Shown here in pieces: positions 20,271-62,776 of a DNA stretch of 64,000 bases; the stretch's first letter is position 1, and each line of letters starts with the position of its first letter. The position numbers were made by a program, and so were the translations under genes. Origin of the DNA: a virus; the IMG/VR virus record IMGVR_UViG_3300045988_092720; one strand, written 5' to 3'. Under the pieces are notes generated by a model. That model saw nothing but the letters and a program-made list of their open reading frames with translations. It had not been told where the DNA came from and searched no databases.

Positions 20271-20274
20271 TGTG

Positions 20275-20622: not shown

Positions 20623-20668
20623 GCCCACCCCTGACCGCACCACGGAGGAGATAACATTGCCTATAGTT

Positions 20669-20697
20669 ATAGTAACATATAAAAATCAATTTGTCAA
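20669..20697 (-). promoter_or_regulatory. Promoter P1: TTGACA, 17-nt spacer, TACTAT.
   Basis: Minus strand: TTGACAaattgatttttatatgtTACTAT. Confidence 0.5.
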
Positions 20698-20701
20698 ATT
20701 T

Positions 20702-21325
20702 TTAATTGGTATACATTTTTATGAAGTTATAGCGTACATAATATACAGGTTCTTTGTCTGTAATATCATACTTAGCACCGTATACTAATTTGCCATTTTG
20801 TTTATCAATACCAACCTGACTATGAAACTTACCTGCACGGAATTCTTCTTGACCGTATACATTCAATTCATGACGTTCTGGTACTTTAATATCAAATTCA
20901 ACAGTAGATTTTTGGTCCAATACTACTTTACCATTTTCAAACTTTTGTGTTTCATTTTGCTGTAAATCAAATTTCTGCTTTTTACCATTTACTTTGACTA
21001 CAACAGCTGGCTTTTCAATACTAGCTTCTACGTCTGTATCTTCTTGTACATACGTTGGTACATTATTCACATATACCAATTCTTTCTGCTTTGGAACATA
21101 AGATACGGTAGTCTTAGTATTAAGAGTAGCCTTCTCGTTCATTATTTTAGGCTGTAAGGTGGGTGTAGATTGTTCCACGTGTGTTTGCCTATGGAGCATA
21201 TAAAACAGCCCACAGAACGCAAATAACGCAATTAAAATGATAATATAAATCTTAATCTTTACATTCTTCAGGGTGGTAATGATACCAGATAGCTTTTCCA
21301 CGAATAATAGCACCTCCGTCTCCAT
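20702..21325 (-). CDS. Membrane-anchored protein (N-terminal TM/signal-anchor), possibly lysis-associated.
   Basis: One strong N-terminal hydrophobic helix followed by a hydrophilic ~150-aa domain. Overlaps the 3' end of the amidase gene. Start uncertain. Confidence 0.45.
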   Translation of the reverse strand: METEVLLFVEKLSGIITTLKNVKIKIYIIILIALFAFCGLFYMLHRQTHVEQSTPTLQPKIMNEKATLNTKTTVSYVPKQKELVYVNNVPTYVQEDTDVEASIEKPAVVVKVNGKKQKFDLQQNETQKFENGKVVLDQKSTVEFDIKVPERHELNVYGQEEFRAGKFHSQVGIDKQNGKLVYGAKYDITDKEPVYYVRYNFIKMYTN

Positions 21326-21785
21326 CTTCTTGCGGTAATGCAATCAAATCCCAACGCATATCAGGGTCATCATCATAGATAGAATACCCGTCAATAATTG
21401 CCCAGTCATTGTGTGTTTTAAAATGTTCTTTATCAATTTCCCAACCTTTAGCATCAGCAATGGTTTTAACAATCATAGCCATTTTATTAACTTGTGCATC
21501 AGTTGGTGGAACAGTTCCCCATCTAACATTTCCTTCTGTATCTACGCTTGCATCTGCACAGCAAAGAATAGATACACCAATATTACCTGTATTACGATGC
21601 CATGTATGTTTACCAGTAGCATCAAAACTGTTAAAATCAGACCATACACGCCCATCACCTAAAATATTTAAGTGGTAGTAAGGGGAGGTATTTTCATACC
21701 CCCCACCACTCCAATGTAAGGTTACTTGGTCGGCATGGCAATTAGCTGCTAAATAAGCAATATCATTTAGAGTATAAAAAGCCAT
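21252..21785 (-). CDS. N-acetylmuramoyl-L-alanine amidase of the T7-lysozyme / Amidase_2 (PGRP) type; candidate endolysin.
   Basis: Collinear with T7 lysozyme blocks: VTLHWSGG, YYHLNILGDGRV, GKHTWHRNTGNIGVSI, VPPTDAQVNKMAMIVKTIADAKG, FKTHNDW. Confidence 0.7.
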   Translation of the reverse strand: MAFYTLNDIAYLAANCHADQVTLHWSGGGYENTSPYYHLNILGDGRVWSDFNSFDATGKHTWHRNTGNIGVSILCCADASVDTEGNVRWGTVPPTDAQVNKMAMIVKTIADAKGWEIDKEHFKTHNDWAIIDGYSIYDDDPDMRWDLIALPQEDGDGGAIIRGKAIWYHYHPEECKD

Positions 21786-24700
21786 TATTCCTCCTCAATA
21801 CCGTCATATAAACCATCAACAAATGTGTTATAAACATTAGCTTGTTCCTTGACCTTATCAGCCTCCACGGAAGATTTTTTAGGTAAGTATTTATTAGCCT
21901 TGTCAATCGCAGACATTTGTTTCAATTCTCTTGCATCTCTAAGCTGTTTGCCAGTTACACCAAAGTCTTTAATACGTTGTTTGTTTTCTGGAGATGGGTC
22001 ACGCAAGAAGTCATTAATAGCTTCTTTCTTCCCATCTTTAAGCTCTTGATTTGCCATAGTAAGTCTATAAGCTAAATCATTTTCTATAGACTCACGAACA
22101 GGTCTGAAACCTAACAATTTCATAAAACGCTCTTCAGATGTATATGCACCTTTATTTTCAGCATTTTTCCAGTCACGCATATTACCAGTGTATGCTTGAT
22201 AGAAGTTGCCAAGTTGTGGAGATAACGCATGACTTACGCCTGTTACTACATCTCGCCAATCATGACTATTCCTAGCCACATCGCCAAGAGCACCATACGT
22301 AGATAATGTAGGACCTAGTAATTCGCTACCACTACTAGGTGTTAAATCACCAAAGCCAACATTTCGGCTAAAGTCAACTCCAAACATAGATGGTGCACCC
22401 ATAATAGCCATCATCGCTATACGTTGTTTAGTTTGGTCTTTACCAGCCCAATCATACAACACATCTTTTGTTCTATCTGTTAAGCCTTTACCTGTTAGCC
22501 ATTTTAACATATCATCGCCAGCACTCATGAATGGTAACCCCATAAAGCCAGCCATACCCATTGTAATACCAATAAAGCGACTTAATCCTTTATAGTCAAT
22601 GGAGCCATCAGGACCTTTGAATGCTGTAAATAAGAACTCAGCTTCCTTAACACCGAACTTCTTAAATTGCAAGATAGTTTTACCTAGTGTACCAAACTTA
22701 GTAAATAACTGTGGAGAGTCAATATCTGTATAGTCAAAGTTTGTTTTAACTACGAAATCTTTGGCATATTCCATAGCCTTTTTATAAGCCTCTGGATTTT
22801 TAGTGTGTAAATCAGTAGTGTCTAAACCGTGTTTAGCAGCGTATTCTTCGTATGCGTGAATAGCAGCAACCTTACGAGTATAAGCATCGGCTTTCATAAA
22901 GCCTTTCATAGAAAGGTCAAATAATTTACCGAATTTAACTCCACCGATTGTAATTCTGCGATAATCTCCACTATCTAAGAATTCAGATGCTTGGCTTGCA
23001 CTTTCTTCATACACTTCTAAATCATCAAATAATTGACCATATTTACCGTTTTTGCCACTCTTACCAGCTTGTTGCATAGCGTATTTTAATTGTGGCGTAA
23101 AGCCTGTTAAAGCTGCTACGTTAGCTAAAGTACCAAACTGTGCGATAGCGGCAGTAGGTCTAAATACACCTAATTTGAATACAGCCATAGCTTGCATATT
23201 ACGGTTAAGAAGTGTTGTTACCCAATTATCACCCATATGTTTTGTCATATAGGCACCGATAAATGGAATTTCACGACCGATAGTATTTAATACCTTATCA
23301 GTATTATTTGGTGCACCTATTACACGTTGAATATAGTTATGGACAATATCTTGTCGTGCGTTTTTAGCACCTGTACCATTACGACCGTATTGTTTTTCAT
23401 AATTCTCACCATATACTTGTTCATAGTAACGTGTAGCAAAATCTAAGAATGGAGCATTGCCTTGATACTTCGCTTGTGTATTTGCATAATGGTAAATCGC
23501 TTTAATATGGTCTTCATTATGACCAAGCACGCCAGCACGTTTAAGATTATGCTTATTCCACATTTGAGCACCAGAACTACGGTATAAATATGCACTAACA
23601 TTATCGTGTGTTAATACGCCATCTTTATCTTTCTTTAAGAGCTTTTCAAAGTTAGCCATACCAGCTTCTTTTTGTAGTTTTTTATAATCTAAACCAAGCT
23701 CTTTCATACGTTCTTTGTTGTTAATTAGGTTTTGGAAATCATCATAAGTCATTGACTTATCTTTACCTTTTAGGAAGTGGTCAATGAATTTCTTAGTTTC
23801 TGTATAATTACCTTGTACACGATTGAATAATGCTGCGGCATCCTCATCAGACATACGCTCATATACCTTATGTAATTCAGCTTCTTCATCTGTTAAGTTC
23901 GAATAGTAACCATCATAAGATTTAGATGCATCTGCTTGATATCTTTCTCTACGAATAGTCATGTAACCAACACCTTTTTCAACAGGTCTTGAGTCTACAT
24001 ATTTATTCGCATCAGCTTCTGTATCAAAAGAAGTTAGTACCGTATACTGAGGGTAATATCTACCAGTTTCTGGGCTATACTTAACTTCCATTTTGTAAAC
24101 ACCATAACGCTTATGCTCACGTGGAATATAGCCCCATAAGTCAGCAGATGGGTCCTTACCTCGTGATACTTGGTTGTCATTTACGTCTTTATGGATTTGG
24201 TTAAGTACTTGGCGAATACCAACATATTTATCCCACAACCTTTCACTATAGCCTAAGTGTTTAGCATACGCTTTAGACATTTCCATTGCCACCTTGTTTG
24301 CATTAGCTTTATCTTTGTAGGAAGGGATATTTTCCTTACTAGAGATTACTTGGTATACATCCTTATTAACGCCAATATAAACATGATTACCTTTTTCTCT
24401 TTCAGCTTTTACAAACTTACGCATACGCTTATCGTCAGCTAAACCAAATTCCGTGAATGTATCTTCTGGTTTGATAATGGCGTATTTTAATTCACCGTTT
24501 AAATTAACTGCTACTGGTTGAGCAAATTCACGACCACGTTTATCTACTTCACCTAATAGCTCATTCATTTTTTTATCTTCACCATTTTTTACATCCAAAT
24601 CTGCAAACTGTTTATCAAGCAGTTGCACATATTCAGTTTTCTTGCGACGATATGTGCGAGCGGCTACATATGCCTCTTTAATGATTGGCTTTAATTCTGG

Positions 24701-27700
24701 GATTAATTTACGTGCCATAGATGATGGAGATTGTAACATTTTACGGAACCATGCAAAAGATATACCGTCTTCTGATGGATTGATACGCTCAATAATACCA
24801 CCGCCATTTTCCATAATGTCAGCAAGTAATTTTTGTTCAGCTTGGTCAATTCTGTCATTCTTTCTAATTGAATAATCAGTATCTTGCTTAATTTTTGCCA
24901 AAACTTTTGCGATAGGGGCTTCAGGTGTTGTAGTAGCACGATTACGTTGGTGTAATGTATCTAGTTTTTGTACACGTTTTCTATCCGCTAAAGCATCTTG
25001 GAAATGCTCTCTAATTTGTTGTTCACTAAAGATATTTGTATTACCATATGAGAACATTTCATTAATAAACGAATAATATTTTTGGTCTAGTTGTGGATTA
25101 TTACCAAGTTTTGGTACCACCATAGCAGCTAAGAATAATTTATCTTTAGTGTCCATAGGGCTATTGATAATAGCTTGTGGTACATCTAAAAAGTCATGTG
25201 CGTTTTGGTTAGCCTGAGCTAGACCCATAATTAATTTTAAGCTGTTTGTGTCGCTTTCTGGATTGTTGATGCTTTGAATAAATTGTCTAATTCTTGTTCG
25301 TTGTTGAGATTTTCCAGCGAGTGCATCAAGGTTTTTACGTCCAAATTTTCCTTGATGTGAAACTGTTCCATCTTCACTTTGATTAGAGCCATCTTTACGT
25401 ACAACTCCGAATGCTCTTTTAAGATTTTTAGAGGCACGTTGTATAACATCTTCAACAGACTGTGGGTCGTTTTCGCTGACAGATGCAAGTATTTTACCGT
25501 TGCCAACTGCTCTGTATATTTCGCCTGCAAGTCCTTCATCTTTTTCAAGCTCCTCTCTCATTAAGTCTAATGTATCATTTACTACATTTTTTAAGTCAGC
25601 TGTCTTAGTAAAGTCAGTTGCACTATGTAATAATTCATGTACAAATGTGTCATTTGTTGGTGTAATATTATCACTTGTGATATATAATCGACCAGTAGAT
25701 GGCATATATGCACCATTAAATTTCAACCCTAATGGGTCATTATTTACTAATCTATCAGCTACATAAATCTCTAAATTAGGATGTGTACGAATATAATTTA
25801 ATATAGTTACATACGCTTGTTGGTCGCCATTAACTACGTGCATAATAGATTTTAAGATATTACGCATTTCTCCATTTGTAAGTTTACCTAACCCTTTGGA
25901 ACGGTCTGCAACCTTTTTCATGATACCCATTTCAATTTCACTAGGTTCATGGAACTTAGCATTTTTGCTATTAGATACTTTCTTGTCGCCTGTTACAGAC
26001 ATTTGAATGTCATTAGTTGGCACAATTGTATATGTATCATCATTAATAATAACTTCATAGCCTAAACGAGAAGTAAGGTCTTTGTGAGATTTAAGGTAAT
26101 TTTTACCATTTTGGTCTAGTAAATCAGCATCAATAACAATGCCTTTGTTTTGACGAGCAACTTCCGCTAGTGCATGGAATGCATAGTCAGCAACTTCACT
26201 ACCGTTGTTAAATAACGCTGATGGTACATATTCCGCATTAACTATAATTTTACCATCTTTAATTTCACTATCAATAATATCATTCATGGTGATAACACCC
26301 ATATCATATAAGTAACCATCTAATACTTCTTTAAAGTCGTCAGGGTCAATAAATTCTGGCACTTTAATTTCTACTGGGAATTCTTCACCTAGTTTGATAT
26401 CCATTTTAATATCTGTGGTATAGATATCACCTTGATAGTTAGGAATAGATGCATGTAAAACTCCGTCTTTATAAGCACTCAATCGTAAAGCCGTAGACAC
26501 TTGATTTTTTGTCTTTTTGTCTTTTAATTTTTCTTCTGTGATTTTAGAGTTTTTGCTAATGCGGTCATCCATAACCTCTGTAACAACGTCTTTGATTTCA
26601 CTATATACACGTTTAGCTAATGGAGAATTAATATTATGTAGACGTGGTGCACCATTTGGGAATAGTTTCTTGGCACCTACTCTGCCAGCCATTGATTTAT
26701 ATTTGTTCTCATTACCAATAGCAGGATAAAGATGTACTGCACGATTGACTAATCTACCTAGCAAATGGTCGCCATTTGGATTGTCAAGTTCTTCCATCAA
26801 CTTATCCATGCCAATAGCTTTAACACGTGTCAAACCTTTTTGAAGTGCGTTAAGAATGATAAAATTACGCATTCTATCATATCGACTAGCTTGCGTAACA
26901 TCTGAAATATTATAATCTTTGTCGAACCATAAACGAATATTTTCATCAAAATGACTAGGGCTATTCAAGAAAGCATTCAATACAACTTGAGGTATTTTTA
27001 CTTCACCACGATTAACAGCTTCCATTAACTCACGTTGAGATGGGATTTTATAATCAGGTACATTATTGAGAATACCCTTCCAAGCTGGAGCATACATTGG
27101 TTCTTTACGCATTAATTGATTACGCTTAGCAATAATACCGTTGAGTATTTTACGGTATTCAGACTTGGAAATAAATGGATGACTATGTAAATATTGAATA
27201 GCATCGGCAATACTATTAATAATATCCATATGTTTTTCCATAACCGCTTGTTCATCTTTAATATTATCACTAATGTCGATATCACCAGTATCTTCGTTCG
27301 CTTGATGTTTCAAATATTCTCTGAATGCCTGTTTCTCTTTTTTACCTTTATCCGTTTCCATTTGCAAGTCATCAACCATTTTTAATGCATCGACTTCGTT
27401 GATTTGTCCGCCACTTTGGATTTGAGATTTTAATTCAGCTAATTTTTCAACGTCTCGCATTACAGCTTTTTGGTCGTCAGTGACCATGTCAACAGTTCTA
27501 GGACCCCTAGGTCTAGTTTGTTTTTTAGGTTTTGGTTGGGCTGGATTTAAGCCTAGTCGTTCTTCATATGGAGTAACAATAGGTTCTTCGCCTGTAGGAT
27601 TGTCATGTTCGATAGTTTCTGTGTGGTCTTTTTTAACTGGTCTTGCTTCCCATTTTTTATTTGGGTTTGGTACAATAACATTATACGGACCAATATTACC

Positions 27701-30166
27701 ACCAAGCACATCATTATTTGCATTTCTATATTTTAGAGCCTCTTTAGTGAGTGGCATTTTCATGCCAGTTTCACGACCAGTATGAGATAGATATTGCTGT
27801 ATTTTCAATAAACCATCACGTGTTACTCTATCACTATTTAGATAATCGGCAATCATTTGGTCATCACCAGCGATATTACGGTCAGATGTTGCTAATTGTG
27901 TGTTATTAACAACTTTTTCTGGCGTGCCATTCGGACGTACTGCAACTTGTGAGTTTTTTCTACGTGTTTCTTCTGCACTACGTTTAGCTTCATCAATGTT
28001 AGCTTGTAACATTCTGCGTTCGTTAGTAGTTAAGATTTTACGTACGTTATCAAATTGAGGTCCAGTAACATCAATACCATTTGCACCTAAAGTAATAAGT
28101 GTATCTTTGATTTTACTAGCAAGAGCGTGTTTTGCTGGTAAATAATTTGCATCATCTTTTGGAGGAAGTGTATTAATTACTTCTTCCATTTTTTCAGCAA
28201 CATCACGGTTTTCGATATAGCTTTTAGCACTGTCCTGTGTACGCTCTGTATTATCCATGTGTTTAACATAGTTTGTAATACGACCAAGCTCTTCATTTGT
28301 ATAGCCATTTCTTGATTTAATACCAGCTTTAGCTAAATAGTTACGTGGGTTTTTGGCTTGTTCATTGCGTCGAATATCAGAGCTATTAGCATCACGTTTA
28401 CGTGCTTGCATTGCATTATGTACACGATACGCTGCATCTCTTGCTTTGATTGGGTTATCTTTATATTCATGCTCAAAGTATGTTTTATTTGGAGAATTCT
28501 CATATCGTTCATTATGATATGCATTTCTACGTTCATTAATAGCATCAAGCTGAGCTTGGAAAGCATTCTGCTTTTCTCTTTCTTGAATTCTATTTGTAAT
28601 ATCACGCACAGATGTTTGGTCAGGGTTTTCACGTTCAAGGTTAGAGCGTTCTGCTTCTGTTAATTCAATACCAAGTCTATCAGCTTTTTCAGCAAGAGTT
28701 TCTTCTTGTGGTTGCTCCTGAACAGATGGTTCTTCTACTACTTCATTAGAACGTGTCATATCTTCATATAAACTACGAGAAAGTAAATTTGCTTCTTTGT
28801 TGGTAAAACCTAAATTAGCAAAGTTCTCAGCAAACATACGAGGAGATAAATCTTCAGCAGTTTTATCACCATGCAAGCCCATAATATTAGCACGCTCATC
28901 TTGTACAGCTTCCATTGCTGCCGCATAGTCTTCTGGTGCTTTTTTATTCAATACTTGGTTTACAGAATTAGCGAAAGAACTTTCTTCCATCATTGGGGAA
29001 TATGAAGCGTTAGAAATATCATCAACCTCTGTATTACCAAGAGGTGTATTATCAATAAATGTAGGTTCTTCAGCAACGATATCGCCTAAACCATCGTTTT
29101 GAACTATAGGTCCTGCACTATCAGCAATAACATCTTCAGTTGATGTTAAGCCAGCCATTTCGTCAGCTTTATTTATGATTTTATTAGAAGCACCACGAAC
29201 AGCACCACCTACACCGCCTACAGCCATGGAGATGTTAAATGCGTCCTGTGCTGCCATATTCATATCATTGGTCCATGTAGATGGGTCTAACATAGATACT
29301 TGGTCATAGCCCTCTTGACCTTTAATACGACCTTCAATAGCTTGTTGCCATGCTTCTGTATAGCCTTCTACTGCACTGTTAGCTGCATTACTAAGTAAAC
29401 CTTTAACCATTAGTTTACCGCCGTCTTTAGCAAATGCACTAGCTAACATGCCAACCTTACCAGATACACCGATACGGTCAGCTGCATAATCTAACATTGC
29501 AGGTCCCCAACCCTCACTCATAGATTGTCTAAAAGCATCACCTGCTACATCTGTGCCATACCCTGCATTACGATAATCATTGTAAATAGAGCCAGCATTT
29601 TGTACGTTCTCAAGACCAGAACCTACTGCAAGTTCTGTACCGTATTTAGCTACTTTACTTAAACCAGTAGCAACAGAGCCAGCTAATCCCTCAGATACGC
29701 CAGCTCTTGCTAATAAACCACCAATTTTACCTGCGTTTAAAATACCAGCAGTAGTACCGCCTGTAGACATAGCCATAGCTACTTGCGGAACGACATTACC
29801 GACAAATTGACCACCTTGAGCCGCCCAATAGTGAGGATTTGTAACTTTATCTCCCCATGATAAATCAGCAGTATCTGGGATTGTACTTCTGTAAGCTGCT
29901 AGATTAGAATAGTAATTAGCTTCGTTTTCAGTTTTCCCACGTAGCCATTGTGCTGTATCGCTGTCAGATAGGGATAATCCATAAGATACCGCACCTAACA
30001 TATCAGAACCTAAGCGGTCTAAACCAGCACTAAAGTTACCTACAAATTCATCAGCAATGCCATCATAATGTGCCTTGCCCATATAATCATATCCAAGAGT
30101 AGCAAGGTTATTACGATACTGGGCATCAGCATTTCTACTGGCTAACCCGTCTGTCCAATTTGCCAT
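21785..30166 (-). CDS. Giant (2793 aa) virion protein, tape-measure-like or ejection/polyvalent type, with an internal HExxH motif.
   Basis: Gly/Ala-rich N-terminal region. Long helical stretches. Hydrophobic segments near the C-terminus. Sits in the tail module. FVHELLHSATDF lies at aa ~1510 (nt 25625-25639). Confidence 0.55.
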   Translation of the reverse strand: MANWTDGLASRNADAQYRNNLATLGYDYMGKAHYDGIADEFVGNFSAGLDRLGSDMLGAVSYGLSLSDSDTAQWLRGKTENEANYYSNLAAYRSTIPDTADLSWGDKVTNPHYWAAQGGQFVGNVVPQVAMAMSTGGTTAGILNAGKIGGLLARAGVSEGLAGSVATGLSKVAKYGTELAVGSGLENVQNAGSIYNDYRNAGYGTDVAGDAFRQSMSEGWGPAMLDYAADRIGVSGKVGMLASAFAKDGGKLMVKGLLSNAANSAVEGYTEAWQQAIEGRIKGQEGYDQVSMLDPSTWTNDMNMAAQDAFNISMAVGGVGGAVRGASNKIINKADEMAGLTSTEDVIADSAGPIVQNDGLGDIVAEEPTFIDNTPLGNTEVDDISNASYSPMMEESSFANSVNQVLNKKAPEDYAAAMEAVQDERANIMGLHGDKTAEDLSPRMFAENFANLGFTNKEANLLSRSLYEDMTRSNEVVEEPSVQEQPQEETLAEKADRLGIELTEAERSNLERENPDQTSVRDITNRIQEREKQNAFQAQLDAINERRNAYHNERYENSPNKTYFEHEYKDNPIKARDAAYRVHNAMQARKRDANSSDIRRNEQAKNPRNYLAKAGIKSRNGYTNEELGRITNYVKHMDNTERTQDSAKSYIENRDVAEKMEEVINTLPPKDDANYLPAKHALASKIKDTLITLGANGIDVTGPQFDNVRKILTTNERRMLQANIDEAKRSAEETRRKNSQVAVRPNGTPEKVVNNTQLATSDRNIAGDDQMIADYLNSDRVTRDGLLKIQQYLSHTGRETGMKMPLTKEALKYRNANNDVLGGNIGPYNVIVPNPNKKWEARPVKKDHTETIEHDNPTGEEPIVTPYEERLGLNPAQPKPKKQTRPRGPRTVDMVTDDQKAVMRDVEKLAELKSQIQSGGQINEVDALKMVDDLQMETDKGKKEKQAFREYLKHQANEDTGDIDISDNIKDEQAVMEKHMDIINSIADAIQYLHSHPFISKSEYRKILNGIIAKRNQLMRKEPMYAPAWKGILNNVPDYKIPSQRELMEAVNRGEVKIPQVVLNAFLNSPSHFDENIRLWFDKDYNISDVTQASRYDRMRNFIILNALQKGLTRVKAIGMDKLMEELDNPNGDHLLGRLVNRAVHLYPAIGNENKYKSMAGRVGAKKLFPNGAPRLHNINSPLAKRVYSEIKDVVTEVMDDRISKNSKITEEKLKDKKTKNQVSTALRLSAYKDGVLHASIPNYQGDIYTTDIKMDIKLGEEFPVEIKVPEFIDPDDFKEVLDGYLYDMGVITMNDIIDSEIKDGKIIVNAEYVPSALFNNGSEVADYAFHALAEVARQNKGIVIDADLLDQNGKNYLKSHKDLTSRLGYEVIINDDTYTIVPTNDIQMSVTGDKKVSNSKNAKFHEPSEIEMGIMKKVADRSKGLGKLTNGEMRNILKSIMHVVNGDQQAYVTILNYIRTHPNLEIYVADRLVNNDPLGLKFNGAYMPSTGRLYITSDNITPTNDTFVHELLHSATDFTKTADLKNVVNDTLDLMREELEKDEGLAGEIYRAVGNGKILASVSENDPQSVEDVIQRASKNLKRAFGVVRKDGSNQSEDGTVSHQGKFGRKNLDALAGKSQQRTRIRQFIQSINNPESDTNSLKLIMGLAQANQNAHDFLDVPQAIINSPMDTKDKLFLAAMVVPKLGNNPQLDQKYYSFINEMFSYGNTNIFSEQQIREHFQDALADRKRVQKLDTLHQRNRATTTPEAPIAKVLAKIKQDTDYSIRKNDRIDQAEQKLLADIMENGGGIIERINPSEDGISFAWFRKMLQSPSSMARKLIPELKPIIKEAYVAARTYRRKKTEYVQLLDKQFADLDVKNGEDKKMNELLGEVDKRGREFAQPVAVNLNGELKYAIIKPEDTFTEFGLADDKRMRKFVKAEREKGNHVYIGVNKDVYQVISSKENIPSYKDKANANKVAMEMSKAYAKHLGYSERLWDKYVGIRQVLNQIHKDVNDNQVSRGKDPSADLWGYIPREHKRYGVYKMEVKYSPETGRYYPQYTVLTSFDTEADANKYVDSRPVEKGVGYMTIRRERYQADASKSYDGYYSNLTDEEAELHKVYERMSDEDAAALFNRVQGNYTETKKFIDHFLKGKDKSMTYDDFQNLINNKERMKELGLDYKKLQKEAGMANFEKLLKKDKDGVLTHDNVSAYLYRSSGAQMWNKHNLKRAGVLGHNEDHIKAIYHYANTQAKYQGNAPFLDFATRYYEQVYGENYEKQYGRNGTGAKNARQDIVHNYIQRVIGAPNNTDKVLNTIGREIPFIGAYMTKHMGDNWVTTLLNRNMQAMAVFKLGVFRPTAAIAQFGTLANVAALTGFTPQLKYAMQQAGKSGKNGKYGQLFDDLEVYEESASQASEFLDSGDYRRITIGGVKFGKLFDLSMKGFMKADAYTRKVAAIHAYEEYAAKHGLDTTDLHTKNPEAYKKAMEYAKDFVVKTNFDYTDIDSPQLFTKFGTLGKTILQFKKFGVKEAEFLFTAFKGPDGSIDYKGLSRFIGITMGMAGFMGLPFMSAGDDMLKWLTGKGLTDRTKDVLYDWAGKDQTKQRIAMMAIMGAPSMFGVDFSRNVGFGDLTPSSGSELLGPTLSTYGALGDVARNSHDWRDVVTGVSHALSPQLGNFYQAYTGNMRDWKNAENKGAYTSEERFMKLLGFRPVRESIENDLAYRLTMANQELKDGKKEAINDFLRDPSPENKQRIKDFGVTGKQLRDARELKQMSAIDKANKYLPKKSSVEADKVKEQANVYNTFVDGLYDGIEEE

Positions 30167-50607: not shown

Positions 50608-52044
50608 TTACATTGCACCTCCCATCGGTATGTCAGCAGTATTAACTGTTCCAAATGTTCCTACAGGTGGACTAGCAATAGCTGAAATGTGTGCTAAACT
50701 GTCAATTAAATCGTCATGTAAAGATTTAGGGAACGATAAAAACTCGCTCTCAAGTTCTACTAAGAAGTCTTTGCCCATAGGGAACCACAATGTGCCAGCC
50801 TTAAAGCGTGGTTGCAATGCGGCAATACGAATTTCTTTCTTCTCCTTAGCCTCTAATGGCTTAACTGTGAACCAAGTATTACGAGCAATCATTTCTTTCT
50901 CCACAAAATGAATTAAAGCCGCCTGATAAGCGACCTTTTCAATACCAACAAAGATTGGTCGGTATTTTTGTACCATTCTAAAGATGGTGTCAATTGTTTT
51001 CGTTGGGTCCCATCGTCCATAATCAATTTCTAATAGGAACCAATGGTTTTCTGGATTTACGGCAACAGCACAGACAGATGTAAAGTCAGCTGTTTCCTTT
51101 TCAGAAATAGCTAAATCGCAAGCGATAAAGATAGAACAATCTTCGATATTCAATACGTTAGGGTCATAATAGCGGAAGTATTCTTTTTTGAAGATTTGGC
51201 TTTCAGGAGAGATAGCAATACATAGTTTCTCACGTTCCCAAATATCTAACTGACCAAGTTTACGCCACTTTTCTCGTTCATCATTAATCGCTTCTACTGG
51301 ATACATCTCTTCCCAGTTAGATTGACCATCTTCATTTAATACAGGAATACGCTCAGCATCAAAACCTAATTCCTCTTTGTTGGATATTACCTGTTCAATA
51401 ATACACTTTTCACCAAGATTATTACCGATGAAGAATATCCGTGTGTTCTTGCCAAGGAAATACACATCAGATAAGAACCATTGATAGTCAGATTTTTGCA
51501 CTGTATCAGATAAACTATCTTCCAAGTCTTGAGGGTCATCTATGAGGATAATATCAGGTCGTCTATCCTTGTTATTCAAACCACGGACACTAGAACCCTT
51601 ACCATACGCTTCCATACGCACAGTGATTTCTTCACCGTTTTTATCCTTCACCACAATTTCAAATGCCTTCTCAGACTGTTCTTTAATACGAACAAGATTA
51701 AGGTTCATTAATTCATTACTGGTGTATTCTTCTGCAATATCTTTAAGCCTTCGGCTGGCTGCCCGTTGGTTAGCCATGATAAATACGATGTATTGCTTCT
51801 TCTTGGATGGAAATACCAAACAGTGAATTGGGAAAGCTCTTAATACGTACGACGTTTTCGCACTCTCACGGAAGCCCTCTACCGCATAATGTCTATCTCC
51901 GTTTAGTAATACCTCTCCCCATTTACGGTGAAACCAAGCAGGCTTTACTTCGTTCTCCGCTGGAAGAAACATCTGCCTAAATAATACCAAGTCATTCTCA
52001 CATCTATCGTAAATCTCAGCTAATTGTTCAATCTCTTTCGACAT
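50608..52044 (-). CDS. terL: Terminase large subunit.
   Basis: N-terminal ATPase with a deviant Walker A (GFRESAKTS). C-terminal RNaseH-like nuclease with acidic residues (FIACDLAISEKETADFTSV). First gene of the leftward late operon. Confidence 0.85.
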   Translation of the reverse strand: MSKEIEQLAEIYDRCENDLVLFRQMFLPAENEVKPAWFHRKWGEVLLNGDRHYAVEGFRESAKTSYVLRAFPIHCLVFPSKKKQYIVFIMANQRAASRRLKDIAEEYTSNELMNLNLVRIKEQSEKAFEIVVKDKNGEEITVRMEAYGKGSSVRGLNNKDRRPDIILIDDPQDLEDSLSDTVQKSDYQWFLSDVYFLGKNTRIFFIGNNLGEKCIIEQVISNKEELGFDAERIPVLNEDGQSNWEEMYPVEAINDEREKWRKLGQLDIWEREKLCIAISPESQIFKKEYFRYYDPNVLNIEDCSIFIACDLAISEKETADFTSVCAVAVNPENHWFLLEIDYGRWDPTKTIDTIFRMVQKYRPIFVGIEKVAYQAALIHFVEKEMIARNTWFTVKPLEAKEKKEIRIAALQPRFKAGTLWFPMGKDFLVELESEFLSFPKSLHDDLIDSLAHISAIASPPVGTFGTVNTADIPMGGAM

Positions 52045-54668: not shown

Positions 54669-54884
54669 ATGAGACGTGAGTTTGCATCTACGTACCCAGC
54701 GGGTACAGATTTCTTTTTAATGTTTGACTCTGCCCGTATTGTGGCAGTTCACATGGGCGAAGATGTTCCAGATGCTTTGTCTGATGCTGATTTAGAATGT
54801 TTGGCTACGGAACGATGTGTGTCTATTCACACTATCCGTCTTGAACATCAATATTTCCAACGTGGTATTTTAGGCTGGGAGTAA
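54669..54884 (+). CDS. Hypothetical protein (start refined to MRREFAST).
   Basis: GGAGTG RBS. Confidence 0.45.
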   Translation: MRREFASTYPAGTDFFLMFDSARIVAVHMGEDVPDALSDADLECLATERCVSIHTIRLEHQYFQRGILGWE

Positions 54885-54911
54885 TCCCAGTCTTTTTAAT
54901 TGGAGGTTATT

Positions 54912-57183: not shown

Positions 57184-57969
57184 ATGGAAAACCTAGCTGT
57201 TACAGTTAATGCAGAAACTGGTTTTTCTGCATATATTGACACAGAAAATACTGTATGTTTCACTGAATTTAGTGGAACGAAATACTCCAAAGTTGACAGA
57301 TTTTCTGACATTTGCTCTAAAATAGAAAAGGGCAAATACCGTATTCATGCCACTAAGTTTTATCGCCCTGAAGTCCTGTTAGTGCGAACTGATATGGATG
57401 ACGAAGCTATTAAATACGGTGGGTTACCGTATCATGTAGGCTCTCAAACTTATGATATCGGCACAGTGCGTATTGGTCAAATTAATGGCGAAAAGTATGT
57501 ATCTATGATTGCCATTCCAAGAGCACAAGTAGCTAGTATTAAAAATAGTTTGAAGCGTTTTGGTACTGATTTACGAAGTATAGGATACTTTGGTGAGGGA
57601 TTATACCAAATAACTAAACGAAAAGCAAAACCTGATACGCCAATTGTAATTATTGCCGATGATGGTATTAGTTGCTTAGGTTTGGTATTCATTAATGGCT
57701 TATTATGTGCTGCTCGTTATTACAACGATGTGGAAATTAAATTAGGTTTTGTGGAACGCTTAGTTGCATCAACAACTTTAGCACAAGACTTATACAATCC
57801 ACAAGTTGCCTTGTTTACTCCTGAAAATAATGTCTGGACAAAAGCATTAAAAGGGGTAGAAATTGTAGATATTCGTCGCTATTATAGCAAAAATAAAGAA
57901 ATCACATCACCTTTGTTTTATAATAGTGTGGGCTTACTGTTTAAAAAAGGAGGAATTTTCAATGCCTAA
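57184..57969 (+). CDS. Hypothetical protein.
   Basis: 261 aa. Confidence 0.45.
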   Translation: MENLAVTVNAETGFSAYIDTENTVCFTEFSGTKYSKVDRFSDICSKIEKGKYRIHATKFYRPEVLLVRTDMDDEAIKYGGLPYHVGSQTYDIGTVRIGQINGEKYVSMIAIPRAQVASIKNSLKRFGTDLRSIGYFGEGLYQITKRKAKPDTPIVIIADDGISCLGLVFINGLLCAARYYNDVEIKLGFVERLVASTTLAQDLYNPQVALFTPENNVWTKALKGVEIVDIRRYYSKNKEITSPLFYNSVGLLFKKGGIFNA

Positions 57970-58177
57970 TTTTGAAGTAAAACGCCATTTCCGTGTAGTG
58001 TTTGCTAAACCTACACGTAGTCTTCGATACAGATTATGTCAAGTGGGACGCTCAGAAACTCTACCAAATGGTAATATTGCCATTTATGCAAATCCATTCT
58101 ACACAGACAGTGAGTTTCATCGTAAAGCATCCAATTTAGTTACAGTGGATAGAATTATGGAGGGTGATTTTCTATGA
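57962..58177 (+). CDS. Small basic protein (71 aa), first gene of the coupled cassette.
   Basis: AAAGGAGG RBS. Its stop overlaps the start of the amidoligase gene (ATGA). Confidence 0.45.
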   Translation: MPNFEVKRHFRVVFAKPTRSLRYRLCQVGRSETLPNGNIAIYANPFYTDSEFHRKASNLVTVDRIMEGDFL

Positions 58178-59901
58178 GATTAACTTTAGGACGTATTGTA
58201 GAACATAACAACCGTCGTTGGCGTGTTGTTGGTGATGGCTTCGACCATGAAGATAATTTTGGTTATATCCTAAATGATGGCGTTAATACAATCTTTGTTA
58301 AAGAGGAAGAACTGCAATACAAAACTGATTATAACATCAAGCCAGAAGATTGTCAACTTGTTAGATGCAATAATGGACGAACAGTTATTAACCATGGTGC
58401 TTTCTCGAACGACCATAAGCGATTACCATGGCGAATTGGCGATATTATTAAAGACCGTTATGGCAATATTCTTACTGTTGTCACTCGTGGCGATATAGTA
58501 TACTACTTCTGTGCTCGTATTGATAGCTACATTTATCAACTACCTGATGGTAATGATAATATTAAGCTAGGTACTAATGCTACCCATTGTGCTGTTACTG
58601 GTGAAGAACTAACAGATGCAATGGAAGTTCATACTAAATGTGGTGTGATTTATATAAATAAACGTAGTAAACCAGAATTCGTAAAACAATCCTGTTTAAG
58701 TGGGAACTGGTATGAACCACAATACTTCCATTTAGTATTAGGCAAGGATTATGAAAATCTCTACGTTGGGTTTGACGAACTGCACCTTGTTCCTAATAAT
58801 CCAGATTTGGCTATTTGTAATGTTACAAATATTCCATTTTATATTGAGGATGAAAGAGATATTGTAAAGAGCACAGGTATTCATCCAGTACTTGTAGACT
58901 CCTTAATGGTTACTTGTCCAGTATCTAATCTCTGTGGTTTAAAAAGAGAGATGTTGGTCGGATATATCCATGGTCAAGGTGCAACATTCTTCCATCCATC
59001 TATTAAAGACCAATTGGTATGTTATAATGGTACATATGGACGTTCTGAAGGTGACTTCTTTACCGTTGAAGATACTGGCGAGAAGTACAGCTATGCCGTA
59101 GCTGACCAATTCTTTAGAGCCAACAACGGTAAATACTATAGCTCTCAATCAGTAGCTCCAATGTTAGGTATTCACCCTTATAACTTTAAACCAGAGCCGA
59201 AATTCTTTGGTAAAGGCAAAAAGTTTATTGGTATTGAATTAGAATTCCATAGCTGTGGTGAAAGCGACCGTACTGCTGATAGAATTATTGGTCCAATGAA
59301 TAATATTATCTACGCTAAACATGATGGCTCTCTACACGATGGTATTGAGTTTGTAACACATCCATGTACTCCAGAATACCATCTAAATGATATGGACTGG
59401 AATAACTTTATCCAACGATTAGTTGATAATAATGGTGATGCAGGTTGTGGAGCTGGTATTCACATGCATGTAAATCGTAATTATTTTAAAGACGATTTGT
59501 GCATCGCTCGAATGGTACGTTTTATTGAAAATCACCATGACACAATTCTGCATATGTCCAATCGGACAGATAGCGACCGTAACTGGTGTGAAAAGTACAG
59601 ATACACTGTGAAAGAAATCAGAAGTATCTTTAGATACGCTCAAGGCTCTGGTGCTAAGTATAGAGCTCTAAATTTATGTCCTGCACATACAATTGAGTTC
59701 CGTATGTTTAGAAGCACTGTGAATGTTAATAGATTGAAAGCATATATCCAATTTGTTGATACTTTGACTAGCGTTGCTAATATGCAAAGTATTAAGTATA
59801 TTGGTTGGTCTCATATTCGTAGACAAGCTGAAAAGCGTGGATATACAGAATTAATTCAGCTATTAGACAGTAAAAATATTGGTAAAGTAAAGGAGAAATA
59901 A
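58174..59901 (+). CDS. Two-part protein: an N-terminal ~340-aa domain of unknown function plus a C-terminal glutamine-synthetase-fold amidoligase-like domain (Amidoligase_2-like).
   Basis: The C-terminal ~230 aa carry GS/GCS2-type blocks: FIGIELEFHSCGE (paired Glu) at nt ~59229-59246, HDGSLHDGIEFVTHP, and GAGIHMHVNRN (GlHvHV-type) at ~59451-59474, followed by ...TIEFRMFRST. Confidence 0.55.
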   Translation: MRLTLGRIVEHNNRRWRVVGDGFDHEDNFGYILNDGVNTIFVKEEELQYKTDYNIKPEDCQLVRCNNGRTVINHGAFSNDHKRLPWRIGDIIKDRYGNILTVVTRGDIVYYFCARIDSYIYQLPDGNDNIKLGTNATHCAVTGEELTDAMEVHTKCGVIYINKRSKPEFVKQSCLSGNWYEPQYFHLVLGKDYENLYVGFDELHLVPNNPDLAICNVTNIPFYIEDERDIVKSTGIHPVLVDSLMVTCPVSNLCGLKREMLVGYIHGQGATFFHPSIKDQLVCYNGTYGRSEGDFFTVEDTGEKYSYAVADQFFRANNGKYYSSQSVAPMLGIHPYNFKPEPKFFGKGKKFIGIELEFHSCGESDRTADRIIGPMNNIIYAKHDGSLHDGIEFVTHPCTPEYHLNDMDWNNFIQRLVDNNGDAGCGAGIHMHVNRNYFKDDLCIARMVRFIENHHDTILHMSNRTDSDRNWCEKYRYTVKEIRSIFRYAQGSGAKYRALNLCPAHTIEFRMFRSTVNVNRLKAYIQFVDTLTSVANMQSIKYIGWSHIRRQAEKRGYTELIQLLDSKNIGKVKEK

Positions 59902-59904
59902 AAT

Positions 59905-61020
59905 ATGTGTGTTATCGCTTATGCAAGTAAAGGTGTTGAAATTTCTGAAAAGGAGTTTCGCAACTGCTTTATAAATAACCCAGATGGGGCAGGGTTTATG
60001 ATTTATGACCCACAGAAGAAAAAGGTACATATCCGCAAAGGGTTTATGGACTTTGAAAGTTTTTGGTCTGCCGTTAAGGACCTACCTACGGATAAAGACC
60101 GTGTGTTTCATTTCCGTATCGCAACGTCTGGTAAGGTATCACCAGAATGTTGTCATCCTTTTATCCTAACAGATAATCTTGATGATATGCGTCAAACAGA
60201 TGTATACTCTGATATTGGTTTCTCCCATAATGGTGTAATGGCTGACTTCACTCCTACCGCAGCATTAAATGCACCTTATAGTGATACAATGCACTTTGGT
60301 GCTGAAATTTTATATCCTTTACGTTCTAAGTTATACGAAGAAAGCACTCAATATCTTTTGAAAAAAGCCATGGGTAACAATAAGTATGCTATCCTTGGTA
60401 AAAAGGGTGCCATTATTCTTGGTGCTTGGAATACATCCAAAGAAACAGGTGTTCAATACTCTAATACATCCTACGAAGAACGCAAGAAATACTATGATTA
60501 TGGTTCTTGTGGCAATTATGGATATGGTAGTTATAACAACTCCTATACATATTCTGTAGATGCAGATGCCGATGTTGATAAATTATCTGCCAAAATCAAA
60601 ACATATGGTGGTATTGTATCTTCTTGGTACTACGATACAGATAAAATTTACTTTACTGTAACAAAGTATTTGTATCCAACTAATTTCTCTGAGTACAATC
60701 TTCGTTATGTTGGTTTTGGTGCAGGTTATTCTATCCCAAAGAAAGAAAAGAAAGTCGAAACTACGTATACAATGATACGTTGTTCGGCTGGTAATGTTCC
60801 AATGAACCAAGAGAAAATCGAAATGATGATGCAATTCGTCGAAGATTGTGGTGGTTCTGTTTGGGATATGACAGAAAATACAGTATCGAAAGACATTGTA
60901 TTGTATGTTACCAATTTTAATGAACTTGAGGGTGTTGTACAAGGGGTTACATACGCTGCTTATGGCACCATCAAGGGTGTTTATGATGATGAAACAGGTA
61001 CTGTAAGGGTATCTGCCTAA
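59905..61020 (+). CDS. Ntn-hydrolase / class-II glutamine-amidotransferase-like protein (Cys-1 nucleophile) with a C-terminal domain of unknown function.
   Basis: Starts MCVIAYA (Met-Cys as in GATase-II/YafJ/EgtC). FHFRIATSGK matches the R-x-A-T-x-G block. Low-complexity Tyr/Gly/Ser/Asn segment at aa ~200-225. Confidence 0.55.
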   Translation: MCVIAYASKGVEISEKEFRNCFINNPDGAGFMIYDPQKKKVHIRKGFMDFESFWSAVKDLPTDKDRVFHFRIATSGKVSPECCHPFILTDNLDDMRQTDVYSDIGFSHNGVMADFTPTAALNAPYSDTMHFGAEILYPLRSKLYEESTQYLLKKAMGNNKYAILGKKGAIILGAWNTSKETGVQYSNTSYEERKKYYDYGSCGNYGYGSYNNSYTYSVDADADVDKLSAKIKTYGGIVSSWYYDTDKIYFTVTKYLYPTNFSEYNLRYVGFGAGYSIPKKEKKVETTYTMIRCSAGNVPMNQEKIEMMMQFVEDCGGSVWDMTENTVSKDIVLYVTNFNELEGVVQGVTYAAYGTIKGVYDDETGTVRVSA

Positions 61021-62207
61021 TGAAGTTATACCCATATCAAAGACAGGGGGTAAACAAGATGCTTAGTCAATCATCCATCTTCCTCTGTGATGATATGGGA
61101 CTAGGCAAAACAGCCCAAGTATGTACTGTCATCAAAGAAAGGAATAAGTTTCCAACTGTGGTTGTATGTCCTGCACCTCTTAAAGAAAACTGGAAAAGAG
61201 AGTTAAAAACATGGGCAAATATTTCTGTGAATACCGATGATTTGAGTAGCAAAGTAATAATTATTAATTATGAAATGCTTAATCACCACCTTTCCAAACT
61301 CAAACAATTAAATATTCAACAAGTGATATTTGATGAATGCCATGTATTAAAAACTCCCACTTCCCAGAGAACACAAGCGGCTCTTAAACTTGTAGAGGGT
61401 GTTCGTTATCGTATTATGATAACTGGTACACCAGTATTAAACAGACCTAAAGAGTTATTGTGTCAATTAGAGATTGCAGGACTTACATATAAACTAGGTG
61501 GCAAGCAGAAGTTTCTACAAGAGTATTGTGGTAACTATGCATCACCTTGGGGTTCATCTTATGATGGTCATTCCAATCTATCAAAGCTCAATGAAGCGAT
61601 GAAGAAAATTTGGATACGCCGTATTAAGAAAGAAGTCCAGAAACAATTACCTCCAAAAACTGTCCACATGGTTCCATGTTGTACTATATCTCAACCAGAA
61701 CCAACTTCGTTTGAGGAGATTGAAAAATACGATAGAGAAGCATTAAAGCAAAAACTTCCTTATTGTATTGAATATATTCGTAAAGTGTTAGAAAGAGGTG
61801 AGTCCCTTGTGGTGTTTGCACACCATCGTAATATAATTGATAAGTTGAAAAAGGAATTTCCTGATGCAAAAATCATTATCGGTGGTCAAACTAAAACAGA
61901 AAGACAAAAAAATATTGATAATTTTCAAAGTCACTCTAACTCGAATGCTAATTACAACCTTATACTGTGTTCTCTGCAAGCCAGTGCTGTAGGTATTACA
62001 CTTACTAATGCACATAAAGCGATATTTATTGAATATCCGTGGTCACCATCTCTTATGGCTCAAGCAGAGGACCGTATACACCGCATTGGTCAAACTCAAC
62101 CATGCGAAATTATTTATCTCTATGCTAAAGATAGTATAGATGAGTACCGATTACGTACTCAAAAAATCAAACAAACTATTATTACTCATACAATGAAAGA
62201 GGTATAA
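61020..62207 (+). CDS. Minimal SNF2-family ATPase / DNA translocase (395 aa).
   Basis: LYPYQRQGV start. Motif I DDMGLGKT. Motif II FDECHVLK. Motif III ITGTPVLN. Helicase-C motifs ...SLQASAVGITLT... and QAEDRIHRIGQ. Confidence 0.8.
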   Translation: MKLYPYQRQGVNKMLSQSSIFLCDDMGLGKTAQVCTVIKERNKFPTVVVCPAPLKENWKRELKTWANISVNTDDLSSKVIIINYEMLNHHLSKLKQLNIQQVIFDECHVLKTPTSQRTQAALKLVEGVRYRIMITGTPVLNRPKELLCQLEIAGLTYKLGGKQKFLQEYCGNYASPWGSSYDGHSNLSKLNEAMKKIWIRRIKKEVQKQLPPKTVHMVPCCTISQPEPTSFEEIEKYDREALKQKLPYCIEYIRKVLERGESLVVFAHHRNIIDKLKKEFPDAKIIIGGQTKTERQKNIDNFQSHSNSNANYNLILCSLQASAVGITLTNAHKAIFIEYPWSPSLMAQAEDRIHRIGQTQPCEIIYLYAKDSIDEYRLRTQKIKQTIITHTMKEV

Positions 62208-62209
62208 CT

Positions 62210-62752
62210 ATGACAACAGTAGCTCAAATGAATTTAATTATTACTAATTACGTTTCCGCTTTATCTGATAAAGAACAACTTCGTTTTATTGCTCAATCTT
62301 TGAAAACAACACAAGTATTCCCAGCTACTCCACTTGGTCTTTCCCGTGCAGTAACATTGTTCATGGATACTCAAGCACATAAAGATGAATTTAAAGCGAT
62401 TGCATTGCCAAAAATTACATTTGACGAAGCAACTGCTAAAAAATATTTGTTCTTGTCCAAATCTGGTGCGGTTCGCATTCGTGAACTTCAACAAATTGTT
62501 TCTTTAGCTATCCAAGCACGTACTAAAAAGTATGTTGAACGTGGTGCTGAAACATCCTACCTGTTAATTCAAGAATTAAAACGAATTGACCGTGAAATGG
62601 GTACTGAATTTTACGAGCACTACAAAATGACTAATCCAACTCCTGTTGTGATGGTCCAACCAACTGTAGAAACTACACCAGTAGAAGATGCACCAGTTAA
62701 TAATGAAGCAACTAATGTTGCCGAAACAGAAGCTGTAAATTCTGCTGAGTAA
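62210..62752 (+). CDS. Hypothetical protein, last gene of the cassette.
   Basis: 180 aa with a coupled start (taactATG). Acidic, Thr/Pro/Val-rich C-terminus. Confidence 0.45.
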   Translation: MTTVAQMNLIITNYVSALSDKEQLRFIAQSLKTTQVFPATPLGLSRAVTLFMDTQAHKDEFKAIALPKITFDEATAKKYLFLSKSGAVRIRELQQIVSLAIQARTKKYVERGAETSYLLIQELKRIDREMGTEFYEHYKMTNPTPVVMVQPTVETTPVEDAPVNNEATNVAETEAVNSAE

Positions 62753-62758: not shown

Positions 62759-62776
62759 GGGGAGCTTCGGCTCCCC
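62759..62776 (+). promoter_or_regulatory. Stable stem-loop with a UUCG tetraloop, lacking a U-tract.
   Basis: GGGGAGC-TTCG-GCTCCCC immediately after the cassette stop codon. Confidence 0.4.

Follow-up and report, generated by a model that had tools for sequence, protein, structure and literature searches.

A predicted amidoligase and N-terminal nucleophile amidohydrolase gene pair in the early gene block of a podophage from human-associated metagenomes

Introduction

A stretch of viral DNA of 64,000 nucleotides (IMG/VR record IMGVR_UViG_3300045988_092720; hereafter the window) covers nearly all of the genome, ~66 kb in length, of a podophage known from human-associated metagenomes. Its block of early + strand genes contains two adjoining genes which are the subject of this report. 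The first encodes a predicted amidoligase of 575 amino acids (aa; 58174–59901, + strand), recognised from its open reading frame (ORF), its Pfam and PHROG matches and an AlphaFold2 model, and the second a 371-aa amidohydrolase resembling the N-terminal nucleophile (Ntn) class-II glutamine amidotransferases (GATases; 59905–61020, + strand). They are surrounded by small ORFs and a gene for an SNF2-family helicase. An earlier interpretation made from the DNA letters alone (the sequence-only reading) had joined five of these genes into an amidation/de-amidation system coupled to a DNA motor. The ORFs and all of the motifs it quoted were found in place and the observation itself is confirmed; its interpretation stands in part. 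Two genes, ligase and Ntn, make up the conserved unit and behave as a genuine functional pair. We favour, at a probability of about 0.6, a two-gene early-operon module in which a ligase and an Ntn amidohydrolase form and cleave gamma-glutamyl-type amides on a target.

The amidoligase/Ntn pair is very common, and in the 15 years of its annotation no substrate has been assigned to it; were the chemistry solved in any single member, thousands of phage genes could be annotated. The window adds a clean minimal example from a human-associated phage, with confident models of both proteins and a quantified two-gene unit.

The amidoligase

The catalytic domain of the 575-aa protein occupies residues ~330–575 (59161–59898, + strand) and has the fold shared by glutamine synthetase (GS) and the GCS2 family. 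Pfam Amidoligase_2 (PF12224) matches residues 391–530 with 26.6 bits against a gathering score of 22 (E 6.5e-6), and the protein has further matches to the PHROG amidoligase families 2443 and 7469. The AlphaFold2 model has a predicted local distance difference test score (pLDDT) of 88.4, and structure comparison places its ligase domain in the catalytic fold of GS and glutamate–cysteine ligase (GCL). The likeness to GS/GCL-type homologues is at the level of the fold, with 12–14% identity, and a search of PDB sequences with the ligase profile gave no match to the catalytic domain, which is linked to known structures by fold comparison alone. The four motifs on which the sequence-only reading based its assignment of a GS-fold amidoligase, an assignment borne out here, lie at residues 353–358 (GIELEF), 390–397 (GIEFVTHP), 428–433 (GIHMHV) and 508–513 (EFRMFR). 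Thirteen positions are invariant in an alignment of 101 sequences (G353, E355, E357, D384, S386, G390, P397, G428, H432, R464, N500, E508 and R510), and E392 and H430 are conserved in at least 90% of them. The invariant Glu, His and Arg columns are of the metal- and phosphate-binding type, and presumably catalytic. By its sequence the 575-aa protein is a member of Amidoligase_2 and a predicted ATP-dependent carboxylate–amine ligase.

The remaining ~329 residues, at the N-terminus (58174–59160, + strand), are clade-specific and beta-rich, with barrels resembling those of SH3 and Tudor domains. Among cluster representatives, an exhaustive HMMER search with a threshold of E ≤ 1e-3 returned 6910 homologues, and these match the C-terminal domain alone, except for the closest clade and short fragments belonging to it. 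The N-terminal domains of ligase homologues are large and vary rapidly from one to the next. Residues 1–329 of the window ligase are presumed to be a target-recognition region.

Distant homologues carry a different kind of N-terminus. Arrays of CxxC...CxxC motifs were found in 72 of 85 such proteins (P0042, P0043, P0165–P0260), with a median of 8 CxxC motifs, and these arrays weakly match LIM double zinc fingers (E ~1e-3). An array of this kind is found also at L101 (5173–5650). Amidoligases fused to arrays of LIM-like zinc fingers are common among phages; the clade of the window lacks the arrays. The N-terminus of the window ligase was considered as a degenerate form of such arrays, since a MAFFT alignment set it alongside the CxxC repeats of the distant homologues. 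hhalign returned a probability of 0.7–1.3%, and homology is not claimed.

The Ntn protein

The 371-aa protein begins with an Ntn glutaminase-type domain (residues 1–192; 59905–60480, + strand) in which Cys2 is the predicted nucleophile. This is followed, after a Tyr/Gly/Ser-rich linker, by two small ferredoxin-like (ACT-like) alpha/beta domains (60535–61017, + strand), which stand at the C-terminus in place of a synthase domain; none is present in the polypeptide. The motifs MCVIAYA and HFRIATSG lie at residues 1–7 and 69–76. A profile search of the PDB reached 1te5 with an E-value of 0.052, and the HxRxAxxG, HPF and HNG motifs align with those of 1te5 and of the GlmS structure 1xff. The AlphaFold2 model (pLDDT 85.9) has the four-layer alpha-beta-beta-alpha Ntn fold, with the GlmS glutaminase domain as its top structural match.

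The family numbers 365 homologues, amongst which the first ~190 residues are strongly conserved. Invariant in all 57 members compared are M1, C2, N25, G28-A29-G30, H69, R71, A73, T74 and G76, together with H84, H108-N109-G110 and S126-D127. R71, N109-G110 and D127 are taken by us to be the equivalents of GlmS R73, N98-G99 and D123. The Met-Cys start and the Ntn class-II GATase-like nature proposed from the sequence are upheld by this invariance and by the model, which indicate a divergent class-II subfamily recognised by its fold and motifs rather than by curated profiles. The nucleophile and the oxyanion hole are intact, as are the Arg and Asp which bind the alpha-carboxylate and alpha-amino groups of glutamine. 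Glutamine, or a gamma-glutamyl amide whose alpha groups are free, is the expected substrate.

A conserved unit of two genes

Two sets of loci were compared. The first consisted of 80 viral loci at which a relative of the Ntn protein is encoded, all from one group of 45–70 kb phages and scanned with the window proteins. The second consisted of 68 diverse loci, made up of two distant phages and 66 analysed of 67 bacterial and archaeal assembly loci. In the diverse set an amidoligase gene is present at 62 of the 68 loci, nearly always directly upstream of the Ntn gene on the same strand and often overlapping it, and at four of the six exceptions the Ntn gene lies at most 550 nt from the end of the contig. 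When the flanking ORFs of this set were clustered, no other family occurred at more than 8 of the 68 loci. The order of ligase followed by Ntn is found also in phiEco32 (gp84/gp83), MEP402 (gp06/gp07), MW202733 and Mycobacterium phage Tesla (108/109). The Ntn protein was detected at 519 viral-contig loci, and the pair ranges across phages of Actinobacteria, Proteobacteria and Firmicutes and into archaeal metagenome-assembled genomes (MAGs). Adjacency of the two genes is obligate. Conservation of the neighbourhood had been set beforehand as a test of the five-gene cassette; it held for the adjoining ligase and Ntn genes, and failed for the SNF2 gene and the small proteins beyond their own lineage and clade, respectively.

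Two loci deserve separate mention. In an Atopobiaceae MAG (L101, 5173–7218) a single 681-aa ORF runs across amidoligase and Ntn, which are joined by an Arg/Pro-rich linker with an internal Met-Cys. This ORF was considered as a Rosetta-stone fusion and set aside: the internal Met-Cys, the nature of the linker and the high-GC DNA point to probable stop loss or read-through, and it is not used as evidence. In phage Tesla, gene 108 (L157, 1558–2919) is labelled 'glutamine amidotransferase domain protein', and its BFVD model matches the amidoligase model with an E-value of 1e-16. Judging from the models, Tesla 108 is an amidoligase and the next gene, 109, encodes the true Ntn protein; the mislabelling probably extends across Marvinvirus genomes.

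The SNF2 gene as a syntenic neighbour

The gene which follows the Ntn gene (61020–62207, + strand) encodes a 395-aa protein matched by SNF2-rel_dom (E 6.4e-37), Helicase_C (7.1e-14) and phrog_62 (E 2e-89). The motifs DDMGLGKT, FDECH, TGTP, LQASAVGITL and QAEDRIHRIGQ were located, and the identification of an SNF2 protein retaining motifs I–VI stands. A match to this SNF2 type was found in 1134 phage records, where the usual annotation is DNA helicase and the usual setting a replication or recombination module. From its sequence the protein is an ordinary short phage SNF2 helicase.

In the first set of loci the ligase, Ntn and SNF2 genes lie on one strand at every locus which extends far enough, and SNF2 starts 0.9–4.3 kb after the start of Ntn. 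The order of the pair is inverted at L079–L088, with Ntn ahead of the ligase. At seven of these loci, in one sub-clade (L079–L082 and L086–L088, on IMG/VR contigs of 60–72 kb), the order is Ntn, ligase, then SNF2 ~0.8 kb further on, the trio having stayed intact through local rearrangement. In relatives, small genes which differ from locus to locus lie between Ntn and SNF2 (L005). In the diverse set SNF2 occurs at 4 of the 68 loci, two of which (L089 and L090) belong to relatives of the window phage family. The linkage of SNF2 is synteny within one phage lineage and, because of its scarcity in the diverse set and the generic occurrence of its type in phages, SNF2 is not counted as part of the conserved module.

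These observations bear directly on the five-gene system of the sequence-only reading, in which amidation and de-amidation are combined with an SNF2 translocase acting on DNA for hypermodification or anti-defence. Within the family the trio stays on one strand inside ~4.3 kb, despite the inversion and down to ~40% identity. Moreover, some metagenomic thymidine-hypermodification clusters include amidoligase and amidotransferase genes (Lee et al. 2021, PMC8989533), and folds of the Tudor/SH3 type are known from chromatin and DNA-repair proteins. Against this, SNF2 is missing from 64 of the 68 diverse loci with the pair and from phiEco32, MEP402, MW202733 and Tesla; the number of small genes between Ntn and SNF2 varies among relatives; the small proteins are clade-specific; and synteny inside one lineage is explained by shared descent. 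Nor does the nucleotide metabolism of the phage point to modified DNA. Its nucleotide genes are those for ThyX, dUTPase and ribonucleotide reductase (RNR) only, and the Pfam scans, from which the large structural ORFs were left out, found no 5-hydroxymethyluracil kinase, aGPT-Pplase, dUMP hydroxymethylase or TET/JBP, the enzymes by which the thymidine-hypermodification clusters are defined. The idea of DNA hypermodification is thus not borne out, the coupling to a DNA motor, which was the exciting claim of the earlier interpretation, is not supported, and the five-gene system as a whole is very unlikely. An assignment to defence or anti-defence was also considered and rejected: in PADLOC and NCBIfam the only matches were generic ones to the SNF2 core, short of the cut-offs, with the other five proteins unmatched, and the SNF2 equivalogs of defence systems (ZorD, DrmD, DpdE) scored far below their cut-offs, again by the generic core.

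For the Negativicutes-associated family alone, a slim chance may be given to a three-part machine of ligase, Ntn and SNF2, a reading kept open by the trio's staying together where the order is inverted and where identity is as low as ~40%. Were it true, the ligase would attach to DNA, or to a protein bound there, through its SH3/Tudor-like N-terminus, and the helicase would move the complex. Gamma-glutamyl or amide marks would then be written and erased on DNA-associated proteins or on DNA itself, in counter-defence or host takeover.

Relation to known cassettes

The pairing of an amidoligase with a following class-II GATase (GAT-II) was reportedly predicted by Iyer et al. in 2009. The description of PF12224 in Pfam, drawn up after that work, is said to name as the partner a GAT-like thiol peptidase or, alternatively, an AIG2 cyclotransferase. 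The arrangement, which the sequence-only reading did not recognise, is thus a predicted one, seen also in phiEco32 gp84/gp83 and Tesla 108/109; its description as biochemically uncharacterised agrees with the searchable literature.

Papers on LUZ24-like, tf, RIO-1-like, OM43 and other phages place 'amidoligase' and 'glutamine amidotransferase' genes side by side, and often add an ATP-grasp enzyme, a second COOH–NH2 ligase and a gamma-glutamyl cyclotransferase (GGCT). For a predicted role in modification of peptidoglycan peptides or synthesis of gamma-glutamyl peptides they refer to Iyer et al. 2009 and to Hardies et al. 2013. The full cassette of phiEco32 comprises gp86, gp84, gp83, gp80 and gp77, amongst them an ATP-grasp enzyme and a GGCT, and Firmicute prophages pair the amidoligase with a GGCT. 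A paper on a Klebsiella 'amidoligase' proved irrelevant, since it concerns an ATP-grasp enzyme.

The window pair is a divergent, minimal member of this known, predicted cassette. It shares with the versions in phiEco32, LUZ24, PaP3, tf, RIO-1 and CW02 the Pfam family of the ligase, the Ntn class-II fold of the partner and the order of ligase then GAT-II. Common to both is also a location among early or middle genes of podophages, and the window phage has, to judge from its close relatives, a portal of the SU10/phiEco32 type. There are also differences. Identity to phiEco32 gp84 is ~20%, and the match to gp83 is at the level of motifs only. The window ligase has its 330-residue N-terminal extension and an SNF2 gene downstream, whilst gp83 has a long C-terminal region where the window Ntn protein has ACT-like domains. 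No ATP-grasp enzyme, COOH-NH2_lig (PF14395) or GGCT was found when 38 window ORFs, amongst them all + strand ORFs of at least 100 aa, were scanned with Pfam.

A like layout of two genes is offered by the OM43 phages MEP401 and MEP402, Podoviridae sp. ctgrD200 (MW202733) and Marvinvirus, in which a ligase of 450–550 aa directly precedes an Ntn protein of ~300 aa, and whose Ntn counterparts are reached by tblastn from the 371-aa protein with E-values of 1e-9 to 5e-20. These phages belong to other lineages and hosts, however, have no SNF2 gene nearby and carry unrelated N-terminal regions on their ligases.

Proposed mechanism and alternatives

In the proposed mechanism, which is built on homology with GS, GCL, YbdK, PuuA-type enzymes and PafA, the ligase would phosphorylate a carboxylate to an acyl-phosphate; glutamate, through its gamma-carboxylate, is the most likely substrate. 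The activated carboxylate would then be linked to an amine, and the target bearing this amine, of host or phage origin, is probably selected by the beta-rich N-terminus of ~330 residues. In the Ntn protein, removal of the initiator Met would expose Cys2 as the N-terminal nucleophile, and the pocket retains residues suited to bind a glutamine or gamma-glutamyl moiety by its free alpha-amino and alpha-carboxylate groups. The enzyme would cleave a gamma-glutamyl amide, which may be either the product of the ligase, giving a writer and eraser or a transient protecting group comparable to EgtA/EgtC and PuuA/PuuD, or glutamine. We infer that the chemistry is of the gamma-glutamyl kind, and likewise infer which way each reaction runs and that there is a target, for which peptidoglycan precursors or host proteins are possible candidates.

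A cleaving rather than a donating partner is favoured because, in related cassettes, the partner can be a GGCT, which cannot donate ammonia. The same fact counts against the chief alternative, a two-subunit glutamine-dependent amidotransferase in which the Ntn protein would pass ammonia to the acyl-phosphate on the ligase and convert R-COOH to R-CONH2. In such a scheme, for which MurT/GatD and the use of NH3 by GS provide models, both enzymes work in one direction and two genes suffice, a simpler account of a two-gene unit. The glutamine-binding residues of class-II amidotransferases are all kept, the top structural match of the Ntn protein is a glutaminase domain, that of GlmS, and GS-fold enzymes use ammonia. 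The tight adjacency and frequent overlap of the genes would fit two subunits too, as would the single ORF spanning both at L101, although this is probably a read-through product whose Cys would not be N-terminal. The characterised stand-alone class-II GAT domains, EgtC and yeast Dug3, are gamma-glutamyl amidohydrolases and not ammonia donors. A precedent for separately encoded subunits exists in MurT/GatD, a co-transcribed ATP-dependent ligase and glutaminase which amidate a glutamate carboxylate, that of D-iso-glutamate in lipid II (PMC3267633); MurT has the Mur-ligase fold, however, and GatD is a class-I glutaminase with a catalytic triad, so that neither is homologous to the window proteins. 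On balance we hold the amidotransferase scheme to be possible, albeit tentatively.

Several points weigh against gamma-glutamyl amides being formed and cleaved by the pair. Two enzymes which ligate and hydrolyse the same bond would run in a futile cycle if no step or target came between them, and the flanking genes include no conserved enzyme for such a step. In EgtA/EgtC of mycobacterial ergothioneine synthesis and PuuA/PuuD of putrescine utilisation, by contrast, intermediate enzymes act between ligation and hydrolysis; these are, moreover, small-molecule pathways of cellular organisms rather than phage early genes, and resemble the window proteins at the level of the fold only. The Ntn pocket fits free glutamine as well as gamma-glutamyl-X, and hence a role as ammonia donor. 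Glutamate is proposed as the substrate from fold-level homology alone, at 12–14% identity. The best Pfam match of the Ntn protein, to GATase_4, falls short of the threshold, with 13.4 bits (E 0.036) where 23 are required, and none of GATase_2, GATase_4, GATase_6 or GATase_7 is reached. The SNF2 gene stays nearby through the exchange of ligase and Ntn order at L079–L088, leaving a lineage-specific functional link open. Finally, mentions of the pair found in the searchable literature are at the level of annotation, with no biochemical characterisation among them.

A pupylation-like form of the peptide tagging suggested by the sequence-only reading finds no counterpart here. PafA/Dop pupylation differs from the window pair in that no Pup-like tag and no proteasome context are present and the hydrolase has the Ntn and not the GS fold. 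The 71-aa neighbour was considered as such a tag and rejected: it ends in ...EGDFL rather than GGQ or GGE, and is restricted to the closest clade.

A question separate from the chemistry is that of the target. Remodelling of the cell envelope at the peptidoglycan stem peptide, which would block superinfection or prepare lysis, is compatible with either chemistry and is the role attributed in the literature to the homologous phiEco32/RIO-1 cassette, albeit on purely predictive grounds in the cited papers. Peptidoglycan offers fitting bonds in its gamma-D-Glu links and in the amidation of iso-Gln. The likely hosts of the phage are Negativicutes (Veillonella and Phascolarctobacterium; L089, L091, L092), whose peptidoglycan has polyamines amide-linked to D-Glu. 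The ATP-grasp enzyme, second ligase and GGCT of the full cassette were not found in the window scans, however, and the pair is present in phages whose hosts have greatly differing walls. The models of both the ligase and the Ntn protein have no signal peptides or membrane segments, although cytoplasmic precursors would remain within reach, and targeting domains which are SH3/Tudor-like in the window and LIM-like in relatives suggest a protein or nucleic acid as the target. An envelope role is doubtful.

It has also been suggested in some papers that these are auxiliary metabolic genes, which would redirect the glutamine/glutamate or nitrogen metabolism of the host or yield a small gamma-glutamyl metabolite, with no macromolecular target. 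Homologues with the GS/GCL fold do act on small molecules, and ACT-like domains typically bind amino acids. Set against this are the large, fast-varying N-terminal domains of the ligase, which are typical of target recognition in conflict systems, its lack of a close host homologue and its location among ORFans of early host takeover. A purely metabolic role is the least likely of the explanations considered here, and a most improbable one.

Gene layout and the small neighbours

The pair is embedded in a chain of tightly packed genes. Upstream lie those for a 261-aa protein (57184–57969, + strand) and a 71-aa protein with an ATG start (57962–58177, + strand), both clade-specific neighbours. 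Downstream of SNF2 is the gene for a 180-aa protein with an acidic tail rich in Pro, Thr, Val and Glu (62210–62752, + strand), likewise a clade-specific neighbour. Searches of Pfam, PHROGs, NCBIfam and PADLOC gave no family match for the 261-, 71- and 180-aa proteins. These three, together with a 124-aa and a 182-aa protein, were detected solely at loci whose Ntn protein has an identity of ~61% or more, so that the 71-, 261- and 180-aa proteins are confined to the closest clade and the proposed five-gene cassette is not supported. They and SNF2 are neighbours, probably co-transcribed, and not components of the module.

The five genes from the 71-aa to the 180-aa protein had been described as chained by ATGA and TAATG overlaps. 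This holds for two of the four junctions, an ATGA overlap of 4 nt between the 71-aa and ligase genes and a TAATG overlap of 1 nt between Ntn and SNF2. The other two are gaps, of 3 nt between ligase and Ntn and 2 nt between SNF2 and the 180-aa gene, and all of the junctions are at most 3 nt apart. The chain continues upstream, with an overlap of 8 nt between the 261- and 71-aa genes and a gap of 1 nt between the 124- and 261-aa genes. The five genes are for this reason an arbitrary unit with no demarcation.

The transcription unit probably extends from a terminator-like site at 54872–54893 to a GC-rich hairpin, GGGGAGC-UUCG-GCUCCCC (62759–62776, + strand), identified from the sequence and RNA folding. 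The hairpin begins 6 nt past the stop codon of the 180-aa gene and has a folding energy of −16 kcal/mol and a z-score of −2.85. As it has no U-tract it is not a canonical intrinsic terminator; it could close the operon as an element of RNA 3'-end, stability or processing function.

The phage and its hosts

The window has a GC content of ~35%. IMG/VR contigs of 64–68 kb share genes with it at protein identities of 97–99%, and a 99% identical contig is present in IMG/VR; the phage is otherwise known from metagenomes alone, with no near-identical DNA found among GenBank phages. The sample identifiers of many related contigs are, we assume, those of the Human Microbiome Project.

A relative lies near the start of a 247 kb contig of the isolate Veillonella sp. 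VA139 (L089, NZ_RQVL01000001.1, 18815–39384), the first 54 kb of which is a viral region in IMG/VR (L061). Its Ntn protein is 45% identical to that of the window, and ligase and SNF2 are present in unchanged order. Further relatives occur in Phascolarctobacterium MAGs (L091, L092). Since relatives occur in the contig of a Veillonella isolate and in these MAGs, the evidence suggests that the hosts of the phage family are Negativicutes, probably oral or gut Veillonella.

Minus-strand genes occupy 0.3–52 kb of the window, and the divergent + strand block, composed mostly of small ORFans and containing the cassette, begins near 52.8 kb. The minus-strand set includes genes for dUTPase, ThyX (4196–4882), a class-II RNR (5204–7600), a primase-helicase, a Rad52-like annealase (14714–15409), a DnaE-type DNA polymerase III (Pol III) alpha subunit (15493–18411) and an endolysin amidase. 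The RNR is of the B12 type with an ATP cone, and Pol III alpha has PHP, NTPase and finger domains. The polymerase of phiEco32, by comparison, is of the Pol A type, whilst close relatives of the window phage have a portal of the SU10/phiEco32 type. A 2793-aa ORF (21785–30166, minus strand), directly upstream of the endolysin-like amidase gene, presumably encodes a giant virion or ejection protein, and a 478-aa ORF lies within the same block (50608–52044, minus strand). Terminase_6C and SU10_portal domains were found on genes of relatives at positions matching the region of these two ORFs. ARAGORN detected no tRNA genes across the whole window (1–64000).

A perfect TTGACA-N17-TATAAT sequence occurs only twice in the window, both times on the minus strand. 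One match (58356–58328) is antisense within the amidoligase gene and has a TG extension; its −10 element differs by one base in the 80% identical locus L010. The other, at ~19411, sits in a low-GC, ORF-poor gap (18977–20702) and could be a real promoter.

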